DNA from: an uncultured virus (IMG/VR IMGVR_UViG_3300020198_000011)
Lineage: Duplodnaviria; Heunggongvirae; Uroviricota; Caudoviricetes
Length of the DNA stretch: 64,000 bases
Reading direction: 5' to 3' (one strand)
Virus record (IMG/VR): IMGVR_UViG_3300020198_000011
Below are positions 2,051 to 61,364 of this stretch, one piece after another. Both the position numbers and the translations under genes were made by a program. The notes below the pieces were generated by a model, which made no database searches, had not been told where the DNA came from, and saw only the letters and a program-made list of their open reading frames with translations. Every line of letters begins with the position of its first letter. Within the stretch, counting starts at the first letter, position 1.

Positions 2051-3699
2051 CAGATGGCCCCCGGCTGCCAACCGCCCGACATGATGGCCTCTTCGCGAGC
2101 GGCGTGGTACTCGTCGAAGCGCTTGAGGATCTCGCGCTGGGCCTTGGGTTCGAGCTTGGCGAAGCTCTGCATGTAACGCAAACGGGCCCGATTGTAGGCA
2201 TGGCGCGAGCGCAGGATGCCCAGCATGGCCTCGGTACTCATCTGGGGCTTCTCGGAGCGCGATCCCATGAAATCGAAGGGCCCGGCTTGCTTCTCGACCA
2301 GATTGGAAAGGGAAGATGAGCCATGATTTTCCAATTGCGCCAGTTTGGCTTGCCAATACACCGCCTCGGCGCTGGCCGGCTTGATGGCCGAAGCGAGATC
2401 AGCCAAGGCCGTGCGCACGCCATGCTGCACGCCGGACGCCAAGGCCTTGCTGGCAATCTCGCGCACTCCTCCCGTTCCGATCGACGTCGCGCCAGTCGTC
2501 AGCCCGTGCGCCGCCCCCTCCGCCAAGCCGCGGCCAACCGCCTGGGCGCCGCGCCGCAGGGCCGGTTTGGCCACCTGCCCCGCATAACCCGCAGCGAAAC
2601 CCATTCCCCGCAGGACCGCGTCGCCAAACCCGGCCCGCTTGAGCGTCAAGCCACCCAGCCGTGCCGCCCGCGCCAGGGATTGGCTCTGCTGATGATGCAA
2701 GAGCCCCAGATGGGCCTTCATGGCCGCGACGTTGGCGGGCCGCAGGCGCATGACGTACTCTCGCAGATCGACCTGCCCGGCCAGGTTGGAGGCGTCGGCC
2801 CCCAGACGCCACAACTGCATGACCAGCGGATCGTTCACGGCGGCCGAGACATGGTGTAGCCATTCGGCCGCCTGCTTGGGCGATTCGGCGCCACCACGCT
2901 TGATGGCCAGCCCACCCAGGCGCACCGCCCGCGTGAGGGCGCTGCCGCCAGACGGACGGCGCGGCATCTCCGAATGCGCCATCGCCGGCGGCGTCAGGGT
3001 GGGCGACTGCACGCGGTGCGGCTTGAGGTAGGCCTTCGCAGCGCCCAGCTGCGACGGCCGCAACCTCATCGCAACCTCGCGCAAATCCAGCTGATCGGCC
3101 GTGTTCCACAACCCCATGACCATCGGATCGTTGGCAATCGTCGCCAGATGCGAGAGCCACTCGGCAGCGGCCTGCTTGGTCTCGCCCTTGCGCGCGAAAC
3201 GCTCCCGGATGGCCTGGGCCATGGCCACCGCCCGTACCAGATCGTCGACGGCCCCGACCGCCGCCAGATTCATGCTGGCCCGCTTGGGAGCGCCCATCAA
3301 AGCCGCCTGCGGCCCCTCGACGCGCGGCCGCACCTGTAAGAGGTTGCGCCCCAGCTGTCCCCGGAAAGATCGCTCCAGCTGATCGATGCCGCGATAGGCC
3401 GGCCGGCCCAGGGCCGCCTCGTACATTTCGATGGGATGCGGCGGGGTCGGGACGTGCATGAGATTCTCCAGTTTGCGGCCGCGCTCGCCGAGCTTGAGGC
3501 CGCGACGGATGCCGGCCCGCACCAGCTCCGCGGCCGCGATGGCGTCCTGGGGCTTGACCGACAGCGCGTGAGCCAGCTCGTGGGGTGGCACGACGGCCAT
3601 GAGCCGCCCGCCCGCCTCGCGGCCCAGTCGAGGCAGCATGGCATCGACCTTGGCGGCCTGCTTGGCCGAAACGCCAAACCGCGTCAGCGAAGTATCCAT
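2050..3699 (-). CDS. putative head/internal protein with internal ~90-aa duplication
   Basis: Start re-assigned to MDTSLTRFGVSAKQAA; six K-x-A-[AGS] motifs; two KQAA(A)EWL..NDP..DLRE..MRLRP..RLGGL repeats. Confidence 0.7.
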   Translation of the reverse strand: MDTSLTRFGVSAKQAAKVDAMLPRLGREAGGRLMAVVPPHELAHALSVKPQDAIAAAELVRAGIRRGLKLGERGRKLENLMHVPTPPHPIEMYEAALGRPAYRGIDQLERSFRGQLGRNLLQVRPRVEGPQAALMGAPKRASMNLAAVGAVDDLVRAVAMAQAIRERFARKGETKQAAAEWLSHLATIANDPMVMGLWNTADQLDLREVAMRLRPSQLGAAKAYLKPHRVQSPTLTPPAMAHSEMPRRPSGGSALTRAVRLGGLAIKRGGAESPKQAAEWLHHVSAAVNDPLVMQLWRLGADASNLAGQVDLREYVMRLRPANVAAMKAHLGLLHHQQSQSLARAARLGGLTLKRAGFGDAVLRGMGFAAGYAGQVAKPALRRGAQAVGRGLAEGAAHGLTTGATSIGTGGVREIASKALASGVQHGVRTALADLASAIKPASAEAVYWQAKLAQLENHGSSSLSNLVEKQAGPFDFMGSRSEKPQMSTEAMLGILRSRHAYNRARLRYMQSFAKLEPKAQREILKRFDEYHAAREEAIMSGGWQPGAI

Positions 3700-4082: not shown

Positions 4083-4411
4083 CAGATGGCCACTGTGATG
4101 AGCCAGTCATCGGCCGTCGGACGCCACCTCCCGCGCGTGGCCGCCGCCCGCCTGGCCGGCGGCTTATACTTGTGGCCCCATTGCAGGCCCATCGGGGCGC
4201 CGATTCCTGCCCCGCCGGCTCCCAGGTTGGCAAGGTTCCCCAGCGCACCCGGTGGGCGCCAGGCGCCCTGCTTTGGAGGCAGGTGCCGCCCTTGCGGGAA
4301 GATTCCCCGAGGAGCACCAGATGGTGCGTCCTTGGCATCGACCTTGGCGTCCCCGAACACATGGCTCCGGCCAGCCTGCTTGGCCATGCAGGCGTCGCGT
4401 GGCGCAATCAT
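4082..4411 (-). CDS. putative small basic head/internal protein
   Basis: MIAPRDACMAKQAG leader; ATGA overlap with sigma gene stop. Confidence 0.55.
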   Translation of the reverse strand: MIAPRDACMAKQAGRSHVFGDAKVDAKDAPSGAPRGIFPQGRHLPPKQGAWRPPGALGNLANLGAGGAGIGAPMGLQWGHKYKPPARRAAATRGRWRPTADDWLITVAI

Positions 4412-5115
4412 CCCGTCAAACTCCCCACGGCCTGCTGGTAGCGCCGGGCCTTGTGCGCGATCTCGGTCTTGAGCCCCGAGATGCGGCTGGGATGGACGTT
4501 GGCCCTGCTGGCGATCTGCCCGGGTCGCAAGACCTCGGCCCCGCCGTAACCGGTGGTATGCCGGAACACCAGCTTCTGCATGGGCGAGAGCTGCTCGTAG
4601 AGGAAGTCGGCAGCGATCCGCTCGTGGCTGATGTCCTCGCGCACGGGCTGGGCTGCGTCGGCTTTGTGCAGGGCGCTGTAAAGACTCGTCTGGAAGGTCT
4701 TGAGCTTGCCCAGGGTGGCCGTACCAATCCCCAGGCGCTCCGAGACCTCCTCGGGCAAAGGGGCGCGCCCCAGCTCGGCTTCGAGATCCTGCTTGGTGCG
4801 CAACACCTTGCCGGCCAGTTGCGCCTTGGCCTCGGGTAGCCGGACCTCCTGGCGGTAGGTGGTCGCATAGCGATCGAGGCCCCGCAGGTGGGTCATCAGG
4901 TGGGTCGAGAGCTCGGCCTTCTGGGGATCGTAGGTCTCGAAGGCCTTGCGCGCCAGGCGTCTGGCCTCGGCCCGCAACGCGACATCTGGCAGGCCCGAGC
5001 CCGACCAGCGCCCGACCTCACGGCTCATGAGGGGCTGATAGGCCGTCATGAGCGGCGCGAGCTTGGCGCGGGGCCGCCCGGAAGCATGCCAATCGGCCCA
5101 GAGCTCGGTGCTCAC
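4408..5115 (-). CDS. phage RNA polymerase sigma factor (sigma70 family, short group-3-like)
   Basis: Region 2-like KAFETYDPQKAELSTHL, VRLPE, region 3-like LEAELGRAPLPEEVSERLGI, region 4-like LSPMQKLVFRH...GQIASRANVHPSRIS. Confidence 0.85.
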   Translation of the reverse strand: MSTELWADWHASGRPRAKLAPLMTAYQPLMSREVGRWSGSGLPDVALRAEARRLARKAFETYDPQKAELSTHLMTHLRGLDRYATTYRQEVRLPEAKAQLAGKVLRTKQDLEAELGRAPLPEEVSERLGIGTATLGKLKTFQTSLYSALHKADAAQPVREDISHERIAADFLYEQLSPMQKLVFRHTTGYGGAEVLRPGQIASRANVHPSRISGLKTEIAHKARRYQQAVGSLTG

Positions 5116-28309: not shown

Positions 28310-28525
28310 CTATCTCCTTTCCAGGAACGGCATGCCGGGGCGCTTGGACTCGTTCATGTAGCTCGCCCGACATGGTCGGCAGAAGCCTTCCATCCAGGTC
28401 CGCGGGCCGTGCTTGGTCTGCACACCGTTGCCAATGAGATCGCGTCTTGTCAATGGCCTGCCGCAGCGCCGGCAGATTGGGTTTCCATCCGGTCCTACCA
28501 TGCGCGGGAGCTTGCGGCGGCCCAT
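28310..28525 (-). CDS. small zinc-finger protein
   Basis: CRRCG...CRPC. Confidence 0.55.
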   Translation of the reverse strand: MGRRKLPRMVGPDGNPICRRCGRPLTRRDLIGNGVQTKHGPRTWMEGFCRPCRASYMNESKRPGMPFLERR

Positions 28526-28532
28526 GGTTATC

Positions 28533-29132
28533 TTAGGCGGGCAAGGGTTGGTTGTCCAGCGGAAGTTTCCCGCAGCGGTACGCAACGAACACGTTGCGGC
28601 GCCCGGGCCGGCAGATGCCCGGGAACGCCGCTTCGAGTACATCCAGATACGCAGCCGCCGGCAGATTCGCCTGATAGCCGTCGCGTGTCAGCCTCCCGTG
28701 GCCGCCGCGATCGCCCTCGTAGACGGATACAAGGAGCAGGCCGCCTGGTCGCAACACCCCGGCCGCCAGGCCCACGAGGCGCTCCCGGCTGGGCATGTCG
28801 AGCAGGACATTGAGCACGCTGCCAAGCGTGACCGAATCGACACCGCCAGGGCGGTTGGCAGCGAGAAAATTGAGCGCGTCGAGATTACATCGGCGCGTAC
28901 GCGCATAGGGATCCACGATCACGTTGGTAATGCCAACCAGGCCGAGCAGCTCGGTCCCGAGGGTATAGGGGCCACCGCCAAGATCCAGGTTGATCGTGCC
29001 GGCCCGGTCGGGGCGTCTGGCCAGTTCATGAATGACGGCTGGCACATGCTTGCGGGCCGTCCTGGCAGGATTGTACCCGAGCTCTGGCGGAAACAGGATC
29101 TCCTCACGGAGCGGCAGATACAGCACGCTCAT
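28533..29132 (-). CDS. class I SAM-dependent methyltransferase
   Basis: NLDLGGG motif I, VDPY, DSVTLGSVLNV, VLRPGG. Confidence 0.75.
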   Translation of the reverse strand: MSVLYLPLREEILFPPELGYNPARTARKHVPAVIHELARRPDRAGTINLDLGGGPYTLGTELLGLVGITNVIVDPYARTRRCNLDALNFLAANRPGGVDSVTLGSVLNVLLDMPSRERLVGLAAGVLRPGGLLLVSVYEGDRGGHGRLTRDGYQANLPAAAYLDVLEAAFPGICRPGRRNVFVAYRCGKLPLDNQPLPA

Positions 29133-29362
29133 GGCCCACAATCCCGGCAAGTGCAGACCCCACGCTGCGCCGCCCAGGCCATCAATTCGCGCCTGGAAAC
29201 GACACCCAGCTTGTCCCGCGCCGAGCTGATGGCGTTCTCACATACCTTGTGGGTGGTGCCGATCTCGGCAGCCATCTCCTTGAATGAGTAGCCCAGGACG
29301 TACAGGCACACGACCTTCAGCTCCTTGCCAGTAAGGCTCGGCTCGGCGGGTTCAAGCATCAT
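29129..29362 (-). CDS. LuxR-type HTH-only regulator
   Basis: LTGKELKVV..GYSFKEMAAEIG....ENAISSARDKLGV. Confidence 0.8.
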   Translation of the reverse strand: MMLEPAEPSLTGKELKVVCLYVLGYSFKEMAAEIGTTHKVCENAISSARDKLGVVSRRELMAWAAQRGVCTCRDCGP

Positions 29363-42588: not shown

Positions 42589-42949
42589 TCATGGCCAAAC
42601 AGGATCCGGGCGCCAGGCAGGCCCACGAGGAAGCCAAGATGGATATCGTCCTGGCCTTTCGGAAGGTCAATCTGATGGCGTGCTCACTCGATACGCTCCA
42701 GCAGATCAAGGCCCTGATCGATGCCGACCCCGGGAAGTCGTAGGCCGGCTCCTCGGCCGCGGCCTGCGGCCGGGTCCTCGGACGCCCTCGGCGCTGAGCG
42801 TCTCCCGTCCTCTGCGGTGCCCGAGGTGAGCCGCATCGCACCGGCGACGCCCCGGGAGGCCCTGGAGTTGGCCACGGCCATCGGGGCTGGCATGACGCTC
42901 TTCGATTGCATCGTGGGTACCTATGATCTCCCTGAGGAGGTCGCCGGCC

Positions 42950-48379: not shown

Positions 48380-50713
48380 ATGTCGAACGAGACCCGTTTC
48401 ACCCTCGGCGAATTACGGACCCTGGCAGAGCTCTCCATCCATGCCGTCGAGGGCCTGCGTGAGGTCATCGCCAAGAGTCCAGGGTTGCTCGTCATTCCTC
48501 CCGCGGTGCTCGATGAGCTCCTGACCCTCACCCATCCCATTTCATGGGTCACGGCCCCAACCGCGCCAGCCGCCGACGTCGAGCCACCGGACATCCAGGA
48601 AGCCATGCTGCCTCCGTCCTCCGCGATGCCCGAAGAGGACCATTACAGCGGCGTCACGGCCCTGGGTAAGATCCTGCGCTCCTGGCGAACGGCCCAGGAT
48701 ATGACCTCTGGCGACATGGCTGGCCGGCTCGGCGTCGACCACGCCCTGCTGCTGAAGTGGGAAACGCACGGCGACACGGCCCCAGATGGCCTGTTCGACA
48801 AGCTGACGCAGGCCTTCGAGATGGATCCGACCACGCAGCTGGAGCTCTTGCAGGCCCTGACCCTGATGGATTCCCGAAACGCCTATCGCCGCATCAGCAC
48901 ACTGATGGCCAAGCACCCGGGCACCGTCTACACGGCCGAGGACATCGCCAAGAAACTCGACCTCAATCTCAATACCGCCCGCACGCACCTGGCCTCCCTG
49001 GCCCGCCGGGCCGTCGTCTACCGCCGGACCAACGGACACTTCTACTGGCCGCCCCATGGCGAGCGCGAAAGCAAGCGCCAGCGCATCCTCGGCATCTTCA
49101 TGAACCGACCGGGCGATACGTTCACCACCCGCGACATCGCCGATCTGCTGGGAACGGACTCGGCCGACGCCAGCCGCCACTTCGACGCGCTCAAGAACAG
49201 CGGCATGATCGTCAAGCTGGGCAATGGGCTCTGGCGGCTGGCCGAACTGCGCGGCGGTGGCAACAAGCCGCCCACCCAGACCGCCAGGGACCGGATCATG
49301 GCCCTGTTCGAGCACGCGCCCACCCTGACGCGCCAGGAAGCCGTCAACCAGCTCACCGATCTCACCGGGCCCACCGTCGACAACGCCCTGCTCGATCTGG
49401 TCAAGACGGGGAGACTCTCGCGCCACAGTAGACTAGGCATCTACCGCCCGGCCACCGCGGATGCCCTGGACAACCAGGGCGCCCGCCCGAAGACCAGCGA
49501 GCCGCTCGACCAGCAAATCCGCAGGATCCTCGATGGCGCCCCAGGCACCTCCTTCAGCCCCGGGGCTCTCGGGGACATTCTGGGCATTACGACCCGCAAG
49601 GTGGACGCCCAACTGAGGAAACTCCTCTCGCAAGGCAAGATAGCCCGGGCCGATCGCGGGGAGTATGTCTCCAGGCGGGCTAAGAAGACCTGGCAACCAC
49701 CGGCGGTCTCGGCGGCCGGGCAGGTTCGCAACTACCTGGCCGCCCACCCCGGCCAGACCTTCCTGCCCGCCGCACTCGCCAAAACGCTCGACCTGAGCCA
49801 CAGCGCCGTCAGCGGCGCCCTCTGGAGCGAGGCCAAGAAAGGCCGGCTCACGGTCGACAAGACCGGCCGCTACACCGTCCCGGACACCTACCCATCCGAG
49901 ACGACGACCGCCGCCACGGGCCCCGAACCAGACCCCGGGACCGACCAGGCTCCAACCAACAGTGGCACCTACTCGCCCGAGGAGCTCGCCGAAGCCGCCA
50001 AGTCGGGCCTGTTCGACAAGGCCCCGGAAAGCCACCAAGCCACCATCGAGGGGCGAATTCAGCATCTGCTGGCCAGCAACCCCGACACCCGCTGGACGCT
50101 CCTTGAGATCTACGACGTGCTCGGCCTCGATATCAGCCTATCCTCCCTGTCCGGCCACGTATCCCACCTCAAGAAAGACGGGATCGCCACCTATCCCGAG
50201 CCTGGCAAGATCCAGCTGGCCGCCCCGCCGCAAGCCGCAGACACCCCCAAGCGCATCCTGAAGCTCTTGCGCGAGCACCCCGAGCGAACCTTCCAGGCCA
50301 TCCACGCCCGGAACGAGCTCAATTTGCTGATCTCGACCATCAAGATTCGCGACATCCTGGTGGATTTCGAGCGCCAGGGCCTGGTCGAACAGCATCCCGG
50401 GAGCCACTTCGCCATCAAGCGCCAGGCCGCCAAGCCCTCCGAGCAACGGGCGCTGGAGATCGCCCAGATGGACCCTACCTACTACCCGGAACCCCCGAGC
50501 CCGTGGTGGATCGCCAAGGAATGCAGCCATTGCACGCGGAGCTTCCTGGTGCCCTCGCACATCAAGACCAACAACCGCTGCTACCGGTCGCTCGAAACGC
50601 ACACCCAGAAGCAACGCCTCACGAACATCCTCGCTCGGCTGCACGAGAAGGGCGAGCCCTTCTCCTCGCCGACAATTACGCCATTGTCTGCGATCAGTGC
50701 GGCAAACGCGTAG
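48380..50713 (+). CDS. XRE HTH plus seven tandem winged-helix domains (probably extends to 50862 via frameshift)
   Basis: Repeated RI..L...PG..F....IA..L.......L..L...G.......G.Y units. Confidence 0.75.
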   Translation: MSNETRFTLGELRTLAELSIHAVEGLREVIAKSPGLLVIPPAVLDELLTLTHPISWVTAPTAPAADVEPPDIQEAMLPPSSAMPEEDHYSGVTALGKILRSWRTAQDMTSGDMAGRLGVDHALLLKWETHGDTAPDGLFDKLTQAFEMDPTTQLELLQALTLMDSRNAYRRISTLMAKHPGTVYTAEDIAKKLDLNLNTARTHLASLARRAVVYRRTNGHFYWPPHGERESKRQRILGIFMNRPGDTFTTRDIADLLGTDSADASRHFDALKNSGMIVKLGNGLWRLAELRGGGNKPPTQTARDRIMALFEHAPTLTRQEAVNQLTDLTGPTVDNALLDLVKTGRLSRHSRLGIYRPATADALDNQGARPKTSEPLDQQIRRILDGAPGTSFSPGALGDILGITTRKVDAQLRKLLSQGKIARADRGEYVSRRAKKTWQPPAVSAAGQVRNYLAAHPGQTFLPAALAKTLDLSHSAVSGALWSEAKKGRLTVDKTGRYTVPDTYPSETTTAATGPEPDPGTDQAPTNSGTYSPEELAEAAKSGLFDKAPESHQATIEGRIQHLLASNPDTRWTLLEIYDVLGLDISLSSLSGHVSHLKKDGIATYPEPGKIQLAAPPQAADTPKRILKLLREHPERTFQAIHARNELNLLISTIKIRDILVDFERQGLVEQHPGSHFAIKRQAAKPSEQRALEIAQMDPTYYPEPPSPWWIAKECSHCTRSFLVPSHIKTNNRCYRSLETHTQKQRLTNILARLHEKGEPFSSPTITPLSAISAANA

Positions 50714-50907: not shown

Positions 50908-52029
50908 TTGGCACGGCTGTCCAACAAGGCGCAACGCATTCTCGGCCAGGCCCCATCACGGAGATCGAGACCCGCCCACGCCACCAGCGGACCACCAGCC
51001 AACCAGCCACCCGGACCAGACCCCGATCCCGCCGGGGAATTACTAGCCCTCCTCAAGGTCCGCAAGGATGCCGGGGTCACGCCCCAGGAACTGGCCAAGT
51101 ACGACGACTGGGTGATTGCGGCCCTGGAAAGCAGGGGCTACGCCATTTCCCTCAAGGGCGGACGCATCGTGCTGGAGCGCGATCCCAAGGCCATCCCGCG
51201 CAACCCGGACGCGGCGGCCTACAACGTCTTCGACCCGCGGCGAAAGTCCTGGCGCTTCCTGCTCATCTCGGATTCCCATATCGGCGGCCGCCAGGCCCAG
51301 CCCTGGTTCCTCAAGAAAATGTTCGAGGAGGCCGAACAGCGCAAGTGCGCGGCCGTGTTTCATGGCGGCGACCACGTCGACGGCAGCCCCAAGATGCATG
51401 CCGGCTTCCTGTATGAACTGGTCCTCACGCGAGCCGACGACCAAGTCGATGCCGCCGTGCAGATCTACCGGAACTGCCAGGTGCCCATGTTCGGCATCGG
51501 CGGCAATCATGACGGATCCTGGTTCAAGGACGCGGGGCTCGATGTCTGCCGCATGATCCAGGAACGCCTGGACAACTATTGCAATATCGGCAACATCGAA
51601 GGCTGGGTAGCGGGACCGAACGACGACCCGAACTTCCTGCTGCTTTTCCACCCGCAAGACGGCACGAGCTACAGCATCTCGTACAAGCCGCAGAAACTGG
51701 CCGAGTATCTGGTAACCGAGAATCGCCGGGTACCAACCTGCTTCACGGCAATCGGCCACTACCACAAGCGCGGCCTGTTCGACGCGGCTAACGGCTCGAA
51801 TTCGATCATGATACCAGCCACTTGCGGGACGACGGCGTTCATGCGCGCCAAGAAGCTCGTGAATCAATCTGGTGCGACATTCGTCGAATTCTCGCTCGAT
51901 AAAAACGGCCAGGTCGACCGCTTCATCTACGAACAAATCAAGCTCTGGCCGCACGAATGGCAATCATGCGATTACTCCGACTTCACCCGCCCACGCCGAG
52001 CGTCGATTGGCAACGTCTGGGGCAGCTGA
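50908..52029 (+). CDS. calcineurin-like metallophosphoesterase
   Basis: SDSH, GDHVDG, GNHD, FHP, GHYH. Confidence 0.88.
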   Translation: MARLSNKAQRILGQAPSRRSRPAHATSGPPANQPPGPDPDPAGELLALLKVRKDAGVTPQELAKYDDWVIAALESRGYAISLKGGRIVLERDPKAIPRNPDAAAYNVFDPRRKSWRFLLISDSHIGGRQAQPWFLKKMFEEAEQRKCAAVFHGGDHVDGSPKMHAGFLYELVLTRADDQVDAAVQIYRNCQVPMFGIGGNHDGSWFKDAGLDVCRMIQERLDNYCNIGNIEGWVAGPNDDPNFLLLFHPQDGTSYSISYKPQKLAEYLVTENRRVPTCFTAIGHYHKRGLFDAANGSNSIMIPATCGTTAFMRAKKLVNQSGATFVEFSLDKNGQVDRFIYEQIKLWPHEWQSCDYSDFTRPRRASIGNVWGS

Positions 52030-52033
52030 AAGC

Positions 52034-52404
52034 AAAACCCCCGGAACCTGCTCGTCTTGCGACGGCCTGTCTCGGGGGCCAGCTCGGCCTTCCTGTCGCC
52101 TCTGCGATCCGTGAGAATCGGTTCGGACGATTGCCGGCCACTTCGGGCACTGCCGCTCGATCTGGTAGGACCGCTTGCCGCGCCCCCGGAAATCACCGCC
52201 GACCGCGCCCAGGACTCACATCCCGAACAGGCCAACCTTGACGACCGGATCACCCGCCCTGGCGGACCGACGTTCATCGGACCGACCGCTTGCGCGGCGA
52301 ACCCAGCGAAGATGACTACGAGAACGTCTCCAGGAACGACTCCTTGCCCTGTCTCCAGGTTGGGGCTCCCTCCCGGGGGCCTTGCGGCCCGCGCCGCTCT
52401 CGAT
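52034..52404 (-). ncRNA. candidate large structured non-coding RNA (~370 nt)
   Basis: Intergenic gap between convergent genes; at least five GNRA-capped hairpins on the minus strand; own TTGACG-18-TATCTT promoter; ends CCGGGGGTTTT. Confidence 0.65.
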
Positions 52405-52419
52405 GTCCTTAAGATAACC

Positions 52420-52833
52420 TTAATCAGGCAGGCTCGTCAAGGGGGTAGGACCAACTTTTTCCGAGAATTCTTCGATGCGGGCCACGATGCGCTCGGGGCC
52501 CCAGCATTTGGTCGCGCTCACCCGCCAGACCCACTTGTCGTCGAACCCCAGGGCCCTGGCGATCGCGTCCACCGAGCACTTGATGGGATTGTCGACGTCC
52601 ACCGAGACCGGCACCCCGGACCGCTCCCAGAGCCTGGGGAAATAGAACTCGAAGCGCATATCCAGTGGCTTGCCTTGTAATTCGAGCGGAAGGGTTACGC
52701 CGCGCTCCCGTAGCAGTTCGACCACCGCGTCGGTGAAGCGCCGAGCGGCGTCGCGCTTGTAGACGTTGCCGTGCTTGCCCTTGGCGTAAAGCTGATTGAC
52801 GCTGACGGCCTTGCCGATGATGATGATCTTCAG
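52420..52833 (-). CDS. rusA: RusA-like Holliday junction resolvase (CTG start)
   Basis: GKAVSVN...DVDNPIK...DA...GFDDKWV; in-frame TGA two codons upstream of CTG. Confidence 0.85.
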   Translation of the reverse strand: MKIIIIGKAVSVNQLYAKGKHGNVYKRDAARRFTDAVVELLRERGVTLPLELQGKPLDMRFEFYFPRLWERSGVPVSVDVDNPIKCSVDAIARALGFDDKWVWRVSATKCWGPERIVARIEEFSEKVGPTPLTSLPD

Positions 52834-58727: not shown

Positions 58728-59516
58728 ATGATCCGCTTGCGCTCGCCGCGCTGGCGCTGGAATACCATCGCCACGCTCTGCGGCGGTGCGCCATTCCGGG
58801 ATGGCCTGACCATTCCTGCCAGGCCGGACAAACTGGCCGAGGATCTCAAGAGCCAGATCCTGGGACGCGGCAGGCCGGACCGCGGAATGTCGCGAGCATA
58901 CCAGATCTATCGCTCGGACAGCGCCCGCACCATTTGGGACTCCATGCTCTTCGCGCTGTGCAAGGCAGGCCAGGAACCAGACTGGGCGACCTGCGGGCAA
59001 GTCCTTCACGAGAGTCAGGATCTGGTGCGGCTATACAGCCAGTTGTTCTTCGACGTGACGGTCTTCGCCGCCGAAACCGACAAGCTGGTATTCCTGGACC
59101 AGTACGTCCGGCTCGATCATCGGGCGGCGCTGATCATGCGCAACACCATGGGCCTCGATCGCGACGGTCTGATGCATGCGGCCGACATGTCCCGGGCAGA
59201 GCGCATCGATCCCAAGACAGCGCTCGAAGAGGGCCTGACGACCTACTACAAGCTGGCTCGGATCTTCGGGCCGCTGGCCATCGCCTTCGAGGCCCGGATC
59301 GCCGAGGACCCGGCGAGTCGTGAAAGGTTCGAATGGATTTTCAAGCAGTACAACATGTCGACCAGCCGCATGAAAGAATTCGCCCACGAACTGCTGGCCT
59401 TCGAGCTCGACAAGAGCGCCGAGAACTTCCTGGAAGAGTTCGTGATGCGCCTTGAGAAAGTCGACAACGACCAGTTGATAGTCGACAAGAATGCCGACGG
59501 CCAGGAACTCGTCTAA
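58728..59516 (+). CDS. hypothetical protein
   Basis: 262 aa, LRSPRWRW...YSQLFFDVT. Confidence 0.7.
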   Translation: MIRLRSPRWRWNTIATLCGGAPFRDGLTIPARPDKLAEDLKSQILGRGRPDRGMSRAYQIYRSDSARTIWDSMLFALCKAGQEPDWATCGQVLHESQDLVRLYSQLFFDVTVFAAETDKLVFLDQYVRLDHRAALIMRNTMGLDRDGLMHAADMSRAERIDPKTALEEGLTTYYKLARIFGPLAIAFEARIAEDPASRERFEWIFKQYNMSTSRMKEFAHELLAFELDKSAENFLEEFVMRLEKVDNDQLIVDKNADGQELV

Positions 59517-59770
59517 TGGCTAGCATTGCGCTTGCGGTCGGGCTTCTCTTCGGGCATGGCGGGCATCGGATCGGGGATGGGTAGCACCACCCCGTCGACC
59601 CTGGGCCGGGTAGGCCGAAGCATGATCGTGCCGTCGTCTAGCAGCTCGACCAAAAAGGAATCACCCAGCTTGGCGCCGATCAACCGCACGTACTCGTTTG
59701 GCAGCGTCACGGCCGAACTGCGGCCATTCCGGACCAACGGTCGCTCTACGATAAGTACCGGTTTCGCCAT
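59513..59770 (-). CDS. AbrB/MazE/SpoVT-family DNA-binding protein
   Basis: VRNGRSSAVTLPNEYVRLIGAKLGDSFLVELLDDGTIMLRP. Confidence 0.85.
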   Translation of the reverse strand: MAKPVLIVERPLVRNGRSSAVTLPNEYVRLIGAKLGDSFLVELLDDGTIMLRPTRPRVDGVVLPIPDPMPAMPEEKPDRKRNASH

Positions 59771-59910
59771 GACTGCCAACTGCCATCCCATAAACAAGCT
59801 CGTATTTGTCCTAACGGCCAAAGTCTGACACAAGCTTGCGTTGGTTGCAAGGCGTTTCATCCGGTTCCATCCGAAGAAGAAGGGAAAAAAGTGTGAAGAA
59901 TATCCAAAGG

Positions 59911-60492: not shown

Positions 60493-60549
60493 GCGATGCG
60501 GACACGGGGCGAGGCCCCGTGCCGGGTAGGAGTGCTAGCGGGCGGCGAC
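60493..60549. repeat. 57-bp direct repeat with hairpin (copy 1)
   Basis: 52/57 identical to 60741-60797. Confidence 0.9.
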
Positions 60550-60720
60550 CTCGACGACCCGGACCCGGATGCCATCGCATCCGTTCAGGTGGTCGACCAT
60601 CGCCGGGTCCATCCGCAGGATCGCCCTGGCTTGGGCCGCGTGCCGGCCGTCCTGGGCGTGGACCTCTCGGCATCCCCCGCCTACCTGGGGGATCCGGATG
60701 ATCAGGGTGCTGCCGTCCAT
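60535..60720 (-). CDS. small hypothetical protein (cassette between repeats)
   Basis: MDGSTLIIRIP...VEVAAR*; GAGGGAG RBS. Confidence 0.6.
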   Translation of the reverse strand: MDGSTLIIRIPQVGGGCREVHAQDGRHAAQARAILRMDPAMVDHLNGCDGIRVRVVEVAAR

Positions 60721-60740: not shown

Positions 60741-60797
60741 GCGATGCGGGCACAGGGCGAGGCCCCGTGCCGGATAGTGGTGCTAGCGGGCGGCGAC
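60741..60797. repeat. 57-bp direct repeat with hairpin (copy 2)
   Basis: Includes last codons (VAAR) and stop of the upstream gene. Confidence 0.9.
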
Positions 60798-61364
60798 GTA
60801 GAGCCACGCCAGCGAGGGGTCGTCGTTGTCCGGCGCCCAGGAGACCTGGACGTCGGTGTCGGCCAAGGCAGCCTCGATCTCCCGCGCCGTCGTGACCAGA
60901 ACGGCCGACCGGCTGACGCGACCGTCGCGGGTGTCGGGGTCGGGGCCGAAGTCGATATCATAATCCCGGGCTACCCGGTCGATCGCCCGGTTCGTCTCGT
61001 TCACGACGGCGCAGTCGTCGCAGTACGACCGACCGCTTTCGCGGGGGTCGGCAACGATGCCGCCCTGGGCGGGGAAGTCGCCGGCCCAGCCCTCGACGCC
61101 ACACCGGGCGCAGCAGGCCGTCGTGGTTGAGAGAACTTCGCGGCCGTCGATCACGACGGTTACGCTGTCGTTACCGGCGGCCTCGACCTCGACCACGCTG
61201 AGGTCGGCGAGGAATACCTCCTCGCTCTGGCCCAGTATCCCCGCCGCCTCGGCGACCGATGCGTAGCCCGCGTCCCGGACGTAGGCCAAAACGGCCGCCG
61301 CCGCGGTTTCGGCCTCGTAAGGGCCCATTGAGATGCCGTTGACGGAAATCGTGTAAATGCTCAT
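60783..61364 (-). CDS. hypothetical protein
   Basis: MSIYTISVNGISMGPYEAET...LYVAAR*; ATGA overlap. Confidence 0.65.
   Translation of the reverse strand: MSIYTISVNGISMGPYEAETAAAAVLAYVRDAGYASVAEAAGILGQSEEVFLADLSVVEVEAAGNDSVTVVIDGREVLSTTTACCARCGVEGWAGDFPAQGGIVADPRESGRSYCDDCAVVNETNRAIDRVARDYDIDFGPDPDTRDGRVSRSAVLVTTAREIEAALADTDVQVSWAPDNDDPSLAWLYVAAR

Follow-up and report, generated by a model that had tools for sequence, protein, structure and literature searches.

A predicted structured non-coding RNA with its own promoter between two convergent phage genes, and a homologous unit in a related genome

In the genome of a lake-water Caudoviricetes phage, two convergent genes are separated by a gap of 390 bp (52030-52419): a calcineurin-like metallophosphoesterase (50908..52029, plus strand; Pfam PF00149) and rusA, which encodes a RusA-like resolvase (52833 to 52420, minus strand; PHROG 140, E 1.7e-8). 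Does this gap carry a gene of its own, and if so, what does it make? The original prediction proposed a regulated, previously undescribed structured RNA of about 370 nt, transcribed from the minus strand by its own promoter. The window, that is, the whole stretch of 64,000 nucleotides that we analyzed, belongs to a contig of 74,876 bp that was found, among sequencing runs, only in DNA runs from lake water; about 11 kb of the contig lies outside the window. The convergent arrangement is as proposed, but rusA extends to 52420, so that the predicted −35 element and operator lie within its last codons and not in the gap. We place the predicted non-coding RNA (ncRNA), about 370-375 nt long, at 52030..52404 on the minus strand, on the basis of its non-coding character, its folding z-score, the spacing of the promoter and a match in a related genome.

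The window encodes typical phage functions, including tail-like proteins, a sigma factor, nucleotide enzymes, RusA and an M23 peptidase, the last identified with Pfam in the minus-strand block that rusA terminates. A gene for a 533-aa protein located 2 kb upstream has 14 relatives with 37-62% identity, several on contigs of 130-208 kb, and two of these relatives are complete genomes that we used for comparison: G006 (203.7 kb) and G007 (208.3 kb). As 34 window ORFs (about seven of them opposite-strand shadows) also match G006 and/or G007, the window is probably a fragment of a phage genome of about 200 kb. The sigma factor gene (4408-5115) is 46-48% identical in both genomes. In both complete relatives, rusA abuts convergent genes with no RNA in between, and the metallophosphoesterase has no match in either. 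Its relative in a third genome, G001 (51% identity), is not followed by such an RNA, so the metallophosphoesterase is not a fixed partner of the RNA. Adjoining it in the window is a 777-aa protein (48380-50713) with many tandem winged-HTH matches; neither protein is matched in G006 or G007, and the pair therefore resembles an accessory block next to the RNA. We also observed two repeat pairs elsewhere in the window. One is a 62-nt direct repeat (60493-60554 and 60741-60802; 89% identical, 248 bp apart) that contains a 10-11 bp hairpin and has no third copy in the window. The other is a 61-nt pair in opposite orientation, 41.7 kb apart (1044-1104 on the plus and 42763-42823 on the minus strand; 79% identical), with no Rfam match and no third copy.

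The gap contains a predicted structured ncRNA and, as proposed, no credible ORF. On a phage codon model, each of the six ORF readings that overlap the gap has a negative score, while held-out real genes score positive in 10 of 10 controls. The minus strand had been described as carrying five hairpins with GNRA loops (52377-52390, 52348-52359, 52286-52297, 52211-52224 and 52053-52064), and all five are present there. They occur together in a single 372-nt minus-strand segment among 2,546 segments from both strands of the window, and all are part of the minimum free energy (MFE) structure with pair probabilities of 0.98-1.0. Dinucleotide shuffles of the minus strand contain at most two GNRA loops in 150 trials. 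Folding of the minus strand against shuffles gives a z-score of −2.7 (−2.3 in a second estimate), while the plus strand of the gap folds like its own shuffles. Among the nine window gaps folded on both strands, this one has both the lowest z-score and the most special tetraloops. Some gaps in the related genomes fold as well or better, with z-scores down to −5.5.

The MFE structure is a string of six consecutive, locally closed domains in which 68% of the bases are paired, including 24 G-U pairs, and most helices have probabilities above 0.9. Domain 1 (52319..52402, minus strand) forms a three-way junction with GCAA and GAGA loops (p 0.87-1.0, z −3.05). Domain 2 (52249..52316) is a second three-way junction that carries a GCAA hairpin and a GAAC-loop hairpin (p 0.96-0.99, z −2.5), and Domain 3 (52186..52248) is a long irregular hairpin with a GUGA loop (p 0.97-0.99, z −4.7). 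Domain 4 (52145..52185, z −1.75) is a hairpin whose loop holds a second copy of the operator described below. Domain 5 (52086..52139; p 0.46-0.99, z −1.3), an irregular stem plus a hairpin with a UCAC loop, is the least certain part of the model; UCAC-loop hairpins also appear in the G006 unit (four) and the G007 unit (one) described below, and we found nothing on UMAC/UCAC tetraloops in the literature searched. Domain 6 (52030..52080), a GCAA-capped hairpin followed by a U tract (−27.9 kcal/mol, z −5.0, helix p 0.98), is a probable intrinsic terminator that a simple terminator scan passed over because its stem is interrupted.

Not every pairing in the original prediction survived folding. Base pairing between CCCCCGG near the 5′ end and the terminal G-run is possible in sequence but disfavored, as both segments have local partners at p 0.98-0.99. 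Of four further stems that had been listed, the one at 52267-52280 is in the MFE structure, while those at 52254-52265, 52116-52132 and 52096-52107 compete with its helices. We also considered a kissing loop between Domains 3 and 5 based on a complementarity of 6 bp and rejected it, since 25 of 150 shuffles match it.

The promoter is where it had been proposed on the minus strand (52411..52440), with the −35 element TTGACG at 52440-52435, a spacer of 18 nt and the −10 element TATCTT at 52416-52411. It matches the sigma-70 consensus at 9 of 12 positions, and there are two such promoter-like sites in 3 kb where 0.7 are expected. From its spacing and from the match in G007, we infer that transcription would start at 52404. 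Transcription of the ncRNA is quite probable.

An operator-like site had likewise been noted next to the −35 element, and it lies 3 nt upstream of it at 52444..52452 (about −48 to −40), which falls within the 3′-terminal part of rusA. Its motif, the strandless GGT(A/C)nTACC, is enriched across the phage: the window has 22 sites where 3.2 are expected, and 50 Markov simulations give eight at most. The sites occur in either orientation, frequently located at −10 or −35 elements, and are also present in G006 and G007, which suggests a phage-wide putative operator regulon conserved in both relatives. They span window positions 1158-62829 (for example, 20145, 23796, 33080, 34461, 39724 and 59917). 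One operator precedes by about 60 bp an AbrB/MazE-like gene (59513-59860) that has homologues in G006 and G007. At 28491-28535 on the plus strand, another has, 26 nt further on, the 10-base −10 context found in the RNA promoter; this promoter-like site points antisense into the gene at 28533-29150. The second copy at the RNA locus (52172-52164, minus strand) is located at +233, in the Domain 4 loop, and may be an auxiliary DNA site. An internal copy is also present in the G006 leader, while the G007 unit has only a site with one mismatch.

Searches for known RNA families were negative. The window has no Rfam match at gathering thresholds, and the ncRNA region has only chance-level matches at E-values up to 10. 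None of these is to tmRNA, RNase P, SRP or group II intron RNA, in agreement with the absence of their hallmarks noted originally. ARAGORN detected no tmRNA and no tRNA in the window, and no tRNA in G006 or G007. As ARAGORN missed a G006 tmRNA that Rfam found, Rfam is the stronger tmRNA test here. Neither G007 nor G001 has an Rfam match at the gathering threshold.

In G007, a unit on the minus strand of L215 (about 3363 to 2848; 2840-3411) has ends homologous to those of the ncRNA. This unit of about 520 nt occupies a non-coding gap of 563 bp, folds with a z-score of −3.7 and has no match to an Rfam family. Its promoter has the same −35 element, abutted by the operator motif, and the same 18-nt spacer, and after an identical gap of 6 nt come the same first five bases. 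At the +1 of this equally spaced promoter, the first 25 nt of the ncRNA are identical at 21 positions. This is the single best match among about 863,000 positions in G006 and G007 combined, and it is reciprocally best in the window, while ten other sigma-70-like promoters tested give 8-12 matches in the first 25 nt. Of 35 sampled 25-mers of the ncRNA, only the first has its best G007 match inside the unit. Two of the other 34 reach 20/25 elsewhere in G007 by chance, so it is the position of the match, and not its score, that carries the argument for homology. G007 and the window each contain a single copy of the 11-nt terminator tail; the G007 copy closes the homologous unit, and G006 has none.

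The 5′ similarity extends to structure. We built three covariance models, each from a single sequence aligned to itself and thus of limited sensitivity, and with the model of Domain 1 alone the G007 site ranked first among non-self matches in 541 kb, at 19.6 bits and a marginal E-value of 0.065. Among 13 comparable Domain 1 base pairs, six are unchanged in G007, four are changed on both sides, one is changed on one side and two are broken, so that 11 of 13 are kept; the alignment comprises two sequences aligned to the model, and 24 of 500 shuffles reach the same level of covariation. The four double changes make the divergence of the 5′ domain compensatory rather than codon-type. The conserved 5′ module consists of the closing helix and GCAA hairpin of Domain 1, and the third arm of this domain is absent in G007. 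The middle of the G007 unit, about 480 nt, shows no similarity to the window ncRNA, so homology does not extend beyond the promoter, the initial ~40 nt of structure and the tail of the terminator. A gene in the same direction starts just after the terminator of the unit. These data indicate that the G007 unit, although at a different locus, is a homologue of the promoter, 5′ module and tail.

Other candidates in the relatives were rejected or stand as separate observations. A second G007 promoter that shares nine spacer bases fronts a different gap and has 12/25 matches at +1, and a look-alike of Domain 4 in G007 (L224) reaches an E-value of only 1.6. A gap of about 480 nt in G007 (L221:17170-17706, minus strand; z −4.6) opens with a GCAA hairpin right behind a −10-like hexamer and does not match the ncRNA covariance models. 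Two promoter-bearing gaps, in G007 (L221:13486-13971; z −5.5) and G006 (L213:11700-12216; z −4.9), are rich in inverted repeats. The former precedes a gene pair resembling a replication initiator and loader and is possibly an origin or control region.

In G006, a sigma-70 promoter with the operator in its spacer is followed by a leader, a tmRNA and a terminator (L210:10411-11460). The leader is non-coding, about 495 nt long and rich in tetraloops, contains the four UCAC-loop hairpins and is closed by pairing of its own ends. The tmRNA scores 72 bits with Rfam and has an unusually long predicted tag of 35 residues. The genes that flank leader and tmRNA are about 70 bp apart in G007. The best match of the G007 module in G006 (18/21, among 427,000 positions) falls in this leader, while a covariance model from the window ncRNA finds no match to it and it folds at a z-score of only −1.1. 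The G006 leader is thus a possible member of the same RNA group as the window ncRNA and the G007 unit.

Searches beyond these genomes returned no further homologues of the RNA body. Comparison by blastn to GenBank phages gave one chance match, and a search against plasmids gave three short matches without a homologue. The G007 unit likewise found no homologue of the RNA body in GenBank phages. An exact 18-mer has one match in IMG/VR, in coding-looking DNA. Pattern searches returned 40 loci for the Domain 1 loops, none with both stems, and at least 119 loci for Domain 2, with none among those listed having both stems or an nhmmer match. Model R1, applied to 46 of about 190 loci from earlier searches, identified no homologue of the RNA body. 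Scans based on neighboring genes included rusA in viral contigs. The metallophosphoesterase led to 20 metagenome loci (all at 26-32% identity) and five viral loci, and among genome contigs neither it nor the 533-aa protein gave any locus; a 327-aa upstream protein matched only unnamed viral clusters in the ESM Atlas. Four other lake DNA runs yielded short contigs with zero sequence variants and so contribute no covariation. No relative of Domains 2-5 turned up in G001, G006, G007 or the collections searched, and their structure is consequently without covariation support. Six short motifs are absent from three of the six supplementary files of PMC10690425, a set of about 10,000 candidates. We found no description of the ncRNA or of the phage group in the literature searched, mostly without subscription papers.

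Taken together, the absence of Rfam and ARAGORN matches, the strand-specific fold, the enriched operator and the G007 homologue support the original proposal that the phage has an undescribed ncRNA that is regulated and has a promoter of its own. The explanation that we prefer, and hold tentatively, is a regulated RNA cassette that can move, whose 5′ module is conserved and whose folded cargo varies, and which acts in trans as a ligand of a protein or ribonucleoprotein. Host sigma-70 polymerase would start at about 52404, gated by a phage regulator that binds GGT(A/C)nTACC, with the copy at +233 as its auxiliary site. The transcript would fold into its string of locally closed domains and end near 52033, at the hairpin with the U tail. 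The 5′ module, with its closing helix from nt 3 and its GCAA hairpin, would probably stabilize the RNA or recruit a protein, and Domains 2-5 would be lineage-specific cargo. With no gene downstream in sense and no credible ORF, one would expect the product to act in trans, presumably through its fold, by serving a host protein or ribonucleoprotein as ligand, decoy or scaffold in the course of infection. With switch, start and stop conserved while body and locus vary, the unit is built like a movable expression cassette with an RNA product. With about two-thirds of the RNA paired, in GNRA-capped arms and purine-rich internal loops, the fold appears better suited to protein or ribonucleoprotein binding or to self-assembly than to base pairing with a target. 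GNRA loops are known for making tertiary contacts. How natural RNA assemblies use such loops is described in bioRxiv 10.64898/2026.07.01.735769.

The gene that follows the G007 terminator in sense, however, fits a leader equally well, and the link to the G006 leader is weak, given its z-score and its absence from the matches of the ncRNA model. The unit could instead be a cis-acting leader, an attenuator or put-like processive antiterminator in which the 5′ module modifies or senses polymerase and decides on terminator read-through. Read-through would then be antisense to the operon of the metallophosphoesterase and the multi-HTH protein, or the unit would be such a leader's stranded relic. 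This agrees with a conserved part that is exactly the promoter-proximal ~40 nt, with the ORF just after the G007 terminator and with the tmRNA behind the G006 leader. In the window, however, the next gene is convergent and none follows in sense, and no alternative antiterminator fold is populated beside the terminator helix. A put-like element needs fewer than 300 nt of domains, and the 300 nt of well-defined, tetraloop-capped domains found here exceed that need; we regard a cis-acting leader as unlikely. Quite unlikely, in our estimate, is that there is no functional RNA body at all, and that the gap is a GC-rich spacer with chance hairpins that carries the rusA operon terminator and a regulated promoter. 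The moderate overall z-score, the weak z-scores of Domains 4 and 5, the lack of homologues of the body in the collections searched and the equal or better folding of some gaps in relatives all fit such a spacer. It would leave unexplained five GNRA loops on the transcribed strand only, z-scores of −2.5 to −4.7 for each of Domains 1-3, the compensatory changes in the 5′ module and the conservation of a promoter-to-terminator unit in G007.

A base-pairing regulator, either an sRNA or a cis-antisense RNA, would act through the Domain 4 loop on GGUAGGRCC or on convergent read-through transcripts. GGUAGGRCC stands directly before the ATG of four window genes of 77-327 aa, and since the plus strand of the gap has no run of four or more T, convergent transcripts may overlap the ncRNA. 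Yet the motif behaves as a palindromic DNA operator, in both orientations and at promoters, and the G007 unit lacks an exact internal copy. Most of the RNA is itself paired, no match of it to the rest of the window beats an E-value of 0.07, and complementarity to the G006 tmRNA does not exceed shuffles, which makes base pairing a very unlikely mode of action. We consider it highly improbable that the ncRNA is a much diverged known RNA, such as a tmRNA relic, an SRP mimic, RNase P, 6S/Ms1 or a GOLLD fragment. Its length of about 370 nt and the tmRNA behind an operator-controlled promoter in G006 would suit this, as would an internal loop of the terminal hairpin that we take to resemble SRP helix 8 loosely. 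Against it, no such Rfam family matches the region or the G007 unit at E-values up to 10, ARAGORN is negative, the ends are unpaired, similarity to tmRNA is at chance and the SRP-like loop is missing from the G007 terminator.

Large folded phage RNAs are rare, and GOLLD and ROOL are still without a function. We would place the ncRNA in this established class, large phage RNAs whose function is unknown, as a putative new family. It is about half as large as GOLLD and ROOL, and as a promoter and a terminator of its own are predicted, its production and direct probing are feasible. The relatives provide a natural swap experiment, with the same ends on different bodies at different loci. If the movable cassette is real, phages swap folded RNA cargo as they swap accessory genes, and family-level covariance searches would miss this exchange because only ~40 nt are conserved. 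A bolder version, which we rate as unlikely, is that these units are RNA-only ‘morons’ of a clade of ~200-kb phages. Each would be mobile and comprise an operator-gated promoter, the 5′ module, 300-500 nt of swappable cargo and a terminator, and would serve as a decoy against host defense sensors or RNA-binding proteins. The cargo would diversify like accessory proteins, and in one relative a tmRNA follows.

Among known systems, the closest parallels are the phage- and prophage-borne RNAs GOLLD and ROOL, which PMC12286853 describes as large folded RNAs that often lie close to tRNA islands and assemble by means of tertiary contacts. The ncRNA is likewise phage-borne, long, highly structured, non-coding and of no known function, although neither its region nor the G007 unit matches their Rfam models. 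GOLLD and ROOL are often near tRNAs (PMC12286853 and PMC5737381); the G006 unit precedes a tmRNA, while the window, which covers all but about 11 kb of its contig, has no tRNA. ROOL averages 581 nt (PMC5737381) and GOLLD often exceeds 800 (PMC12286853), against 370 nt here. ROOL has six multistem junctions as well as three pseudoknots, compared with two three-way junctions and a kissing loop at chance level here, and, unlike both RNAs, the ncRNA is a succession of locally closed domains for which no pseudoknot is supported. PMC12286853 also divides GOLLD into a conserved and a variable part; the conserved part is at the 3′ end in GOLLD and at the 5′ end here. Because the relatives have different bodies, a single conserved fold of the GOLLD/ROOL kind is not demonstrated. 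Abundance as a transcript and assembly into homo-oligomers are further hallmarks of RNAs like GOLLD, ROOL and OLE.

The other large RNAs are more distant. tmRNA is of similar length, and that of G006 lies behind a promoter with the same operator, but no tRNA-like domain was detected in the ncRNA by ARAGORN or Rfam and its 5′ and 3′ ends are unpaired. Sense similarity to the G006 tmRNA is equaled by 158 of 300 shuffles, and 283 of 300 score as high in antisense complementarity. For RNase P RNA, there is no Rfam match and the ends do not pair as P1 would; for SRP RNA, there is again none (E up to 10), and the look-alike loop in the terminator hairpin is not shared by G007. 6S and Ms1 RNAs form a single end-paired rod with a central bubble, in contrast to six separate local domains here, and have no Rfam match either. 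The same is true of OLE on the ncRNA region and of group I and group II introns, and the ncRNA lies between two complete convergent genes. In HK022 put RNA and other RNA antiterminators, a structured element at the transcript start is the conserved part. While the ncRNA is much longer than put, has no Rfam match and precedes no sense operon, it shares with these elements that what is conserved is a structured element at the start of the transcript.
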